Source: Rhodoferax sp. | GTDB taxonomy: Bacteria; Pseudomonadota; Gammaproteobacteria; Burkholderiales; Burkholderiaceae_C | Direction: 5' to 3' | Length of the DNA: 64,000 nt | Assembly (NCBI RefSeq): GCF_023701345.1 | Contig: NZ_JAMPXE010000002.1 | Location: forward strand, 14,109 to 78,108 | Part shown: positions 61,961 to 62,317 of the stretch, one piece after another | How positions within the stretch are numbered: the stretch's first letter is position 1 | Layout: each line of letters begins with the position of its first letter | Translations under genes and position numbers: made by a program | The notes under the pieces: generated by a model | Told to the model about the DNA's origin: nothing | The model's input: only the letters and a program-made list of their open reading frames with translations | Database searches by the model: none

Positions 61961-62317
61961 TCAATAACCGATCTCGAACCACCCTGGCTCGCGGCGGCGC
62001 AGTTGCGCAAACAATTCCAGCGTAGCGGGCACCAGGGCGCGCACGCCGTACCAGACCTCCTCGCGGCGCGGCTGGGTGTCGTGCGCCAGCAGCTGCTGCA
62101 GGCAGTGCCAGCCATGCCAGTCAATCTGGACCAGGCGCCGGCGCAGCGGCTCCGGCAAATGGGCCAGGGTCTGCGCGATGACGAGCAGGTGAACCTCGAC
62201 ACGCTGCAAGGTATTGGCGCTGGCAAACAGTTCGTCTTCGCTCTGCAGCTCGGCCAGCAGGGCAACGACGACCTGCCCGCTGGTCTGCAGAATGTCATAT
62301 TGCATGCGGGACAACAT
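61961..62317 (-). CDS. HEPN (DUF86/HepT-like) fold protein, catalytic motif degenerate
   Basis: The pattern F.S....V...L..I......LP..LR.....I.W......L.H......VW..V...P matches DUF86. The R-x4-H position reads QQLLAH. Start could be 62305. Confidence 0.55.
   Translation of the reverse strand: MLSRMQYDILQTSGQVVVALLAELQSEDELFASANTLQRVEVHLLVIAQTLAHLPEPLRRRLVQIDWHGWHCLQQLLAHDTQPRREEVWYGVRALVPATLELFAQLRRREPGWFEIGY

Follow-up and report, generated by a model that had tools for sequence, protein, structure and literature searches.

The window analysed here, a stretch of 64,000 nt (64 kb), carries among its nif genes an ORF that had been predicted to encode a HepT/DUF86-fold protein with neither the catalytic Arg nor the antitoxin-modified Tyr of HepT toxins and with no MNT partner gene beside it. 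The locus raises the question of what such a relative of a toxin would be doing in a nitrogen-fixation operon, and whether the gene is maintained there or is decaying. The ORF is real and conserved. It runs from ATG to stop, and it has 191 close homologues, 65-93% identical to it and nearly all 118 aa long, with 32 invariant columns in an alignment of 33 sequences. The organism derives from a groundwater metagenome, and the sequencing runs that contain the target sequence are DNA metagenomes only. An AF2 model of the protein is all-helical, with a pLDDT of 87 and a pTM of 0.80. JGI and UniRef annotate its relatives as 'HEPN domain' or 'HepT-like', many of those in JGI as 'uncharacterized protein with HEPN domain'. 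The features of the locus are collected in the table.

Features of the target locus, listed from the nifK side to the nifE side and beyond (positions in the 64-kb window)
Feature	Position	Strand	Remarks
nifK, 3' part	63445..64000	-	83-99% identical to the C-terminus of DUF3364 + Oxidored_nitro genes of related loci; runs off the window
2Fe-2S ferredoxin, 115 aa	62949..63296	-	PF00111, E 2.5e-9
Conserved uncharacterised protein, 105 aa (ORF_62629/ORF103)	62629..62946	-	tblastn 59-92% identity, nearly all loci; no Pfam match
Conserved uncharacterised protein, 84 aa	62344..62598	-	Directly upstream of the target, 26-nt gap; no Pfam, NCBIfam or PADLOC match
Target ORF, putative HepT/DUF86-derived motif-less HEPN-fold protein	61961..62317	-	118 aa, ATG to stop
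Degenerate RX4HXY remnant, Q74-Q-L-L-A-H79-D80-T81	62075..62098	-	Residues 74-81 of the target, read from the sequence
NifX/NafY-like protein, 128 aa	61560..61946	-	Directly downstream of the target, 14-nt gap
ParD	61235..61474	-	PF03693, E 3.8e-5; TIGR02606, E 5e-12
ParE	60915..61238	-	PF05016, E 1e-10
GFA-family protein	60465..60866	-	
Sigma54-type -24/-12 element TGGCACCAAAAATGCA	60241..60256	-	One-mismatch match, 35 nt upstream of nifE
nifE	58716..60206	-	
nifN	57265..58683	-	
nifX	56818..57228	-	
DUF269	56330..56821	-	
Rop-like protein	56133..56327	-	
Fer4 (4Fe-4S ferredoxin)	55825..56136	-	

The relationship to HepT is a remote one. Searched alone, the target protein gave no match in Pfam and NCBIfam even at E<=1, nor in Pfam even at E<=10. 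When 51 members of the broader family were scanned against Pfam, 18 matched PF01934 (HepT-like), with a best E-value of 5.2e-5, and any other family was matched by at most one member. For profile comparison, a canonical reference set of 120 proteins with a precomputed PF01934 label was gathered with a consensus-like bait, and 56 of these were aligned. With hhalign, the broad target family aligned to the 56 canonical proteins over 93 columns with a probability of 97.4% and an E-value of 1.1e-11; the negative control, in which the broad family was compared with an unrelated 84-aa family, gave 1.1%. A profile of the close relatives alone reached just 21% against canonical DUF86, in the register of the broad-family run. 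A home-made HMM of canonical DUF86, run over the six-frame translation of the 64 kb, matched the target ORF (E 0.005) and nothing else, so that the window holds no second, canonical HepT detectable in this way.

The structural model is consistent with this relationship. A Foldseek search of the PDB with the model placed HepT/HEPN toxins (7ae8, 7ae6, 7ae9 and 7ae2) at all of ranks 1-11, with probabilities of up to 0.96 and TM scores of 0.44-0.51; the E-values of these matches, 0.18-0.6, are non-significant by themselves. The Shewanella HepT chains (5yep, 6m6u and 7bxo) lie further down the list, and one lower-ranked HepT reaches a TM score of 0.59. Sequence-profile searches of the PDB with the close and the broad alignments returned designed coiled coils or noise only.

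An exhaustive profile search defined the wider family as 80 clusters at 50% identity, made up of proteins of 110-130 aa, with the consensus ...S-R-x-T-R...L-P......P-E-I-D-W-x-G-W......W-F-A...L-x-P-A-T-L-x-W-L-R-x-Y-R...P-E-L-F. Landmarks common to this family and DUF86 are F31, IxW (W67), VW (W89) and LP/VP (P97); the target family adds conserved residues of its own, namely S33, T36, D66, G69, W70, T99, R107, P111 and F114. Descent of the target from the DUF86/HepT fold is therefore well supported as a case of remote homology, resting on profiles and consistent with the model, and on this point the original prediction holds.

The signature of HepT is RX4HXY, in which the Arg and His are catalytic and the Tyr is polyAMPylated by MntA through its GSX10DXD motif (PMC7641770). 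Rx4HxY is present in all 120 canonical DUF86 proteins. The target carries the string Q-QLLA-H-D-T at residues 74-81, as had been read from its sequence, and the canonical Arg aligns with Q74 and the canonical Tyr with D80/T81. The canonical His column falls on a one-residue gap in the broad-family hhalign run and on H79 in the near-family run. Column counts over 284 family members bear on this ambiguity. Among close relatives, position 74 is Gln in 108, His in 18 and Arg in 8, with Ala, Gly, His or Arg in distant members; position 79 is most commonly Gln (70), followed by Arg (14) and Thr (10), with His in just 8 of about 140; and position 81 holds Ala, Val, Gly or Thr and never Tyr. An R-x4-6-H string occurs in the motif region of 13 of the 284 members, at scattered offsets and never with x-Y next to it. 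On these alignments H79 is a local coincidence and not a retained catalytic His. Since it is unconserved among relatives, all three of Arg, His and Tyr are gone from the family, and not Arg and Tyr alone: the claimed loss of Arg and Tyr stands, and the implied survival of the His does not. The canonical RNLEIIGEA residues are also replaced, R44, E47, G50 and E51 corresponding to V42, L45, A48 and Q49. Of the features by which a HepT toxin was judged, an RX4-6H motif, the MntA-modified Tyr and an adjacent MNT gene, the target has none.

The last of these was sought in several ways. Pfam and NCBIfam revealed no NTase domain in the neighbours of the target. A loose scan for GSx8-12DxD/E over 58-64 kb found the pattern only inside ParD, GFA and NifE and in a single plus-strand open stretch of 24 aa; with the strict pattern GSx10DxD, applied to the whole 64 kb, the only matches were in GFA and in a reading frame on the opposite strand of a GTPase gene. 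PADLOC defence models matched neither the target nor its two upstream neighbours. The prediction that no nucleotidyltransferase gene adjoins the target is accordingly confirmed, and it extends to the whole window; in the related loci inspected, whether nif or non-nif, we likewise saw no MNT gene. The 84-aa upstream protein is ruled out as an MNT, by sequence only, as it has no Pfam NTase match and no GSX10DXD. A head-less homologue of CCA-adding enzymes found in related loci (see below) could not stand in for an MNT, being without the NTase head and missing from the window. We also considered, and rejected, a connection with ParDE, which lies 0.5 kb downstream and is an unrelated type II toxin-antitoxin pair inserted independently into the nif cluster.

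The target lies in a run of minus-strand genes separated by short gaps, extending from nifK towards nifE. No sigma54-type match other than the element in the table was found on the minus strand between nifK and that element, and scans for terminators and sigma70 promoters gave results at chance level. Because of the short gaps and the missing sigma54 match, the cassette that contains the target is probably read through from, or co-transcribed with, nifHDK. The 2Fe-2S ferredoxin is present in most related loci. The 84-aa protein belongs, as its short form, to a nif-linked family of 161-aa proteins (84/161-aa family, ORF84) and lacks a central segment of about 77 aa; its single-sequence AF2 model had a pLDDT of 47 and was unusable. 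Assignment of the NifX/NafY-like ORF rests on a weak match to PF02579 (E 0.036) in its 140-aa reading, the 128-aa reading giving nothing at E<=0.01; orthologues hold the equivalent position in L005, L008, L010, L011, L057 and L061.

In about 85 Comamonadaceae loci the gene for the target has its place between nifK and nifE; about 40 of these loci are from genomes (L001-L043) and 45 from metagenomes, the latter retrieved by a scan anchored on the 84/161-aa family. The typical order in the genome loci is nifHDK-[ferredoxin]-105-aa ORF-84/161-aa ORF-[AAA+ ATPase]-target-[rubrerythrin]-[NifX-like]-...-nifEN. Carriers include Rhodoferax, Hydrogenophaga, Extensimonas, Curvibacter, Pseudacidovorax, Hylemonella, Acidovorax and other Burkholderiales, and all carriers identified belong to this order. 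The 84/161-aa gene stands directly upstream of the target, or of the AAA+ gene and the target together, in most loci, and at a distance of 2-48 nt in those with the short form. At least 14 genome loci have a gene for a 570-aa AAA+ protein immediately upstream of the target, in L001 with a 4-nt overlap of stop and start. This protein consists of an N-terminal part of about 360 aa and a C-terminal classic-clade AAA domain nearest to Cdc48/VCP D2; remnants of its gene were found in L030/L116 and L113. In Hylemonella, Curvibacter, Pseudacidovorax and L130-134 the head-less CCA-adding-enzyme homologue, a protein of 275-313 aa with body and HD domain only (PRK10885 positions 169-384, E 3.6e-47), is encoded no more than two genes away from the target. 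AAA+ and HD genes are both missing from the window, where the 84-aa gene is the sole recurrent neighbour.

None of these associations is fixed. Of the 63 loci anchored on ORF84 that have enough downstream DNA, 42 carry the target, 3 have a truncated copy of it and 18 lack it, L063 (ORF84-AAA-rubrerythrin) and L135 (ORF161-nifE) being among these last. The 84-aa gene is missing from L010 and L025, which have the target; the 84/161-aa family is found unaccompanied by the target in the 18 loci just mentioned, and the AAA+ gene in L063. As target, 84/161-aa gene and AAA+ gene each occur apart, no pairing is obligate.

Relatives outside nif clusters share some of the same neighbours. Proteins about 50% identical to the target are encoded in non-nif loci in the order AAA+-target-GST in Sphaerotilus hippei (L044) and head-less CCA-like protein-target-GNAT in Ideonella (L045-47 and L049). 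In Aquabacterium a relative about 55% identical over a partial match is encoded on its own, with minCD and a radical SAM gene nearby. A member with 32% identity lies alone between Sua5/YrdC and a PHP gene, with TrpRS nearby, and in another locus two tandem paralogues lie 4 kb from draTG-nifHDK. Viridibacterium and Rugosibacter are among the distant members, and all identified carriers are Betaproteobacteria. An NTase was absent from all non-nif contexts inspected. Recruitment to the nif operon, as originally proposed, consequently describes one orthologue clade only, because the sister clades and the wider family are not nif-linked. Within that clade the linkage is real, as the loci between nifK and nifE attest, but it is facultative, and the Sphaerotilus, Ideonella and Aquabacterium relatives do not share it. 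Our search of the literature found nothing linking a HEPN protein to nif clusters.

What, then, does the protein do? The reading that we consider the most probable, with reasonable though far from complete confidence, is that it is a motif-less and partner-less DUF86 derivative, an optional nif accessory that serves as a HEPN-fold binding or adaptor protein and not as a toxin. The target would be non-enzymatic, its helical HEPN bundle acting as a binding or adaptor module. It might work with products of the same cassette, that is, the 84/161-aa protein and, in loci that have it, the Cdc48-like AAA+ protein, whose gene is translationally coupled to that of the target, and it would modulate the handling of a nitrogenase-related client instead of cutting RNA. 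The recurrence of AAA+ and HD neighbours both in and outside nif argues for a linkage that is functional and not merely positional. From the sequences we infer that the protein would lack RNase activity and toxicity; its work as an adaptor and the choice of partners are proposed on the same footing. Several observations run counter to an adaptor: the window keeps the target although it lacks the AAA+ and HD genes, none of the pairings is obligate, the omega of the target exceeds that of core nif genes 2-3-fold (see below) and the gene has been lost or truncated in some lineages.

The strongest competitor, which we regard as rather unlikely, is that the target is a non-cutting regulator that binds RNA or tRNA, its dead HEPN cleft sequestering or presenting, for example, tRNA 3' ends or nif transcripts. 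Motif-less HEPN domains have been proposed as RNA-binding modules by Anantharaman et al. (PMC3710099). The head-less CCA-adding-enzyme homologue is a recurrent neighbour in nif and, in Ideonella, outside it, and the gene of the distant member beside Sua5/YrdC and near TrpRS would also fit. The window, however, has no CCA-like gene, and the HD protein adjoins ORF161 without any HEPN-like gene in L114 and L121. Moreover, the residues conserved across the family are mostly aromatic or aliphatic (W67, W70, W89, Y/F90, P97 and F114), R107 being the only basic one. The pI of the target is acidic, at 5.0-5.9, but this is uninformative on RNA binding, since canonical DUF86 proteins are just as acidic.

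Less likely again is a specific role as the client-recognition or regulatory subunit of a nitrogenase-associated remodelling module, composed of the 84/161-aa and AAA+ proteins and sometimes the HD protein, that would act on nitrogenase proteins or on a nucleotide or RNA signal while nitrogen is being fixed. Were this so, a toxin-derived fold would have been rewired into nitrogenase maintenance.

We think it improbable that the active site has merely moved, leaving the target an RNase or other enzyme in which H53, H68, R84 and R85 substitute for the RX4H dyad. These residues are near-invariant in the close family (H53 in 136 of 144 sequences, H68 in 128 of 142, R84 in 138 and R85 in 123), H68 lies on the helix of the lost motif, and the HEPN survey records members with a compensating His at another site as well as HEPN proteins that remain toxic without the motif (PMC3710099). 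In the wider family, however, position 68 is A, D or E, position 84 is E, Q or A and position 53 is N, A or G, and it is the absence of these residues from the wider family that makes a relocated site unlikely. The target also has no antitoxin-like neighbour, and it is encoded in a biosynthetic operon, where a free RNase would be costly.

Whether the gene is kept by selection or is a decaying ex-toxin gene carried along in the nif cluster was addressed with 44 orthologous CDS extracted from the genome loci. These yielded 43 distinct, uninterrupted sequences of full length (117-124 aa), which span genera and identities down to 55% and have no frameshifts or stops. Pairwise NG86 estimates of dN/dS for 853 usable pairs gave a median omega of 0.36 for the target. 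In comparisons of the window with its orthologues the median is 0.30, most values falling between 0.13 and 0.35, against medians of 0.09 for NifE and NifN, 0.10 for the ferredoxin and 0.13 for both the NifK C-terminus and the 105-aa ORF. The target is thus under purifying selection, 2-3 times more relaxed than that on core nif genes, and given the 43 intact orthologues and an omega of about 0.30, it is not a pseudogene. Selection in place of decay, as originally predicted, is borne out, including by the dN/dS comparison that had been suggested. In favour of a functionless remnant one may cite the absence of the gene from 18 related cassettes, an in-frame internal deletion of 150 bp in one MAG (L051), with a matching short form in three metagenome contigs (L083-85), and an omega above that of the neighbouring genes. 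Against it stand the intact orthologues, their low omega, the 32 invariant columns and the length of 118 aa fixed in nearly all homologues, and we judge it very improbable.

Least probable of all is that the resemblance to HepT is due to chance and the target is a generic helical bundle of other origin: the failure of the single sequence in Pfam and NCBIfam, the coiled coils returned from the PDB, the Foldseek E-values and the low near-family score would allow it, but they are outweighed by the broad-family alignment with its unchanged register and near-zero control, by the concentration of matches in PF01934, by the landmarks F31, W67, W89 and P97 and by the unique match in the window.

We conclude that the target is an optional, selectively maintained accessory gene of Comamonadaceae nif cassettes. 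Its contribution may be minor or conditional, as the gene has been lost or truncated in some lineages. What is new is that a DUF86 subfamily without the motif has become fixed in a nitrogen-fixation cassette, a clear case in which the HepT/DUF86 toxin fold has lost nuclease motif and antitoxin and been established, as a gene standing on its own, within a biosynthetic operon; inactive HEPN domains themselves are a known category. To the specialist the surprise will be only moderate, because such domains are already recognised and the gene is optional and lineage-restricted. A further outcome is a group of uncharacterised genes that co-vary in the interval from nifK to nifE in Comamonadaceae and encode the 105-aa, 84/161-aa, Cdc48-like AAA+, head-less CCA-like HD and HEPN-like proteins. 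The variable cassette around the target (AAA+, HD, 84/161-aa and 105-aa proteins) is arguably a more promising lead than the target itself, and if any cassette gene affects the stability, oxygen tolerance or regulation of nitrogenase, this would bear on understanding and transferring nitrogen fixation.

Among known systems, three groups are closest to the target. It shares its fold family with HepT (DUF86, PF01934), the toxin of the type VII HepT/MntA systems, examples being Shewanella oneidensis SO_3166 and the HEPN toxin of Aphanizomenon flos-aquae. At 118 aa it is similar in size to HepT proteins of the short DUF86 type, of about 115-120 aa, and the two have F31 and the L/V-P in common, as well as the I-x-W that precedes the motif helix and the V-W that follows it. 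Unlike HepT, it is without RX4HXY, the RNLEIIGEA residues and an adjacent MNT bearing GSX10DXD; it displays a signature of its own (S33, T36, D66-W67-x-G69-W70, T99, R107, P111 and F114), and it resides in a nif operon, whereas HepT is found in a mobile two-gene module. According to the 2013 HEPN survey, 83% of the members of DUF86/PF08780 have kept the motif (PMC3710099).

The second group comprises non-catalytic HEPN domains that serve as binding or regulatory modules, namely MtlR of the mannitol operon, Swt1, GlnD/GlnE and the C-terminal domain of KNTase (PMC3710099). Like these, the target has lost the RNase motif and would have been taken over for a non-nuclease role, although there is no detectable sequence relationship between it and any of them past the superfamily. 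In contrast to GlnD/GlnE and KNTase, it is neither fused to nor paired with an NTase. The nearest conceptual precedent is MtlR, which is encoded within the metabolic operon that it serves; nothing found here points to a role of the target in regulation like that of MtlR. The third group is formed by the small nif accessory proteins, such as DUF269, the Rop-like DUF683, NifT and the NifX-associated ORFs. These, like the target, are small, lineage-restricted and non-essential, and are conserved in nif clusters between the structural and the cofactor-assembly genes. Their folds are unrelated to that of the target, which is set apart from them by its narrower range and by a recognisable toxin ancestry.

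The gene just upstream of the HEPN-like gene, which encodes a HepT/DUF86-derived protein without the RX4HXY motif, belongs to an uncharacterised nif-linked family that is more widely distributed than the HEPN-like gene itself; in 80 metagenome loci a member of this family lies between nifK and nifE. The family occurs in two forms, a short form of 83–85 residues and a long form of 161 residues, the latter carrying a central insert of some 77 residues. The C-terminus is strongly conserved, reading EQLVALEVLADD(C/N). Comparison with Pfam, NCBIfam and PADLOC gave no match to this 84/161-aa family.

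Two further genes recur as neighbours of the HEPN-like gene. The first encodes a 570-aa protein in which an N-terminal part of about 360 residues, lacking an assignment, is joined to a Cdc48/VCP-D2-like AAA domain. Many Hydrogenophaga-type nif clusters carry this gene as an insertion separating the 161-aa gene from the HEPN-like gene, and in Sphaerotilus it adjoins the HEPN-like gene in a non-nif setting; it is absent from the window. The second encodes a homologue of CCA-adding/repair enzymes that retains only the body and HD domain, the nucleotidyltransferase head being missing. It repeatedly adjoins the HEPN-like gene, both within nif clusters and, in Ideonella, outside them, and is also found beside the 161-aa gene where the HEPN-like gene is lacking.

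Features of the window and of related loci (L numbers, from genomes and metagenomes; positions after the colon are those within the locus)
Feature	Position	Strand	Remark
84/161-aa family	window 62344..62598; e.g. L001:7783-8268	- (window)	
105-aa conserved protein	window 62629..62946	-	no family assignment
128-aa protein	window 61560..61946	-	marginal NifX/NafY-type Nitro_FeMo-Co match
ParD/ParE pair	window 60915..61474	-	type II toxin-antitoxin
GFA-family gene	window 60465..60866	-	
sigma54-type -24/-12 element, TGGCACCAAAAATGCA	window 60241..60256	-	35 nt upstream of nifE start
570-aa AAA protein	L001:8286-10004; L044:4252-5991; ~14 other loci		
Remnants of 570-aa AAA gene	L030:3758-3937; L113:4172-4291		
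Head-less CCA-enzyme homologue	L046:5045-5986; L006:9337-10164; L037-L042; L121:4187-4885; L130-L134		
68-aa HEPN-like allele	L051:6001-6207		
Tandem HEPN-like paralogues	L053:7585-7968 and 8001-8354		

The HEPN-like gene itself varies. The L051 allele has an in-frame internal deletion of 150 bp that fuses '...LLV' to 'PATLE...', and tblastn returns the same short match on three metagenome contigs (L083–L085, around 4276–4479). A truncation specific to this lineage seems more likely than an error of assembly. The tandem paralogues of L053, which lie 4 kb from divergently oriented draG-draT and nifHDK, share 58% and 38% identity with the Sphaerotilus member (L044), and 49% and 31% with the window protein.

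In the window, the ParD/ParE pair and the GFA-family gene are interposed between the accessory cassette downstream of nifK and nifE; a close relative (L057) has ParD at the equivalent site. The minus strand of the nifK–nifE interval holds no other match comparable to the sigma54-type element. Within the cassette, the 105-aa protein has a median dN/dS of 0.13 against its orthologues, and its gene immediately follows the ferredoxin gene in nearly all related nif clusters. For the 128-aa protein, the Nitro_FeMo-Co match is obtained only with a 140-aa reading (E 0.036); the gene counts as a second, divergent NifX-like one beside the canonical nifX (56818..57228).
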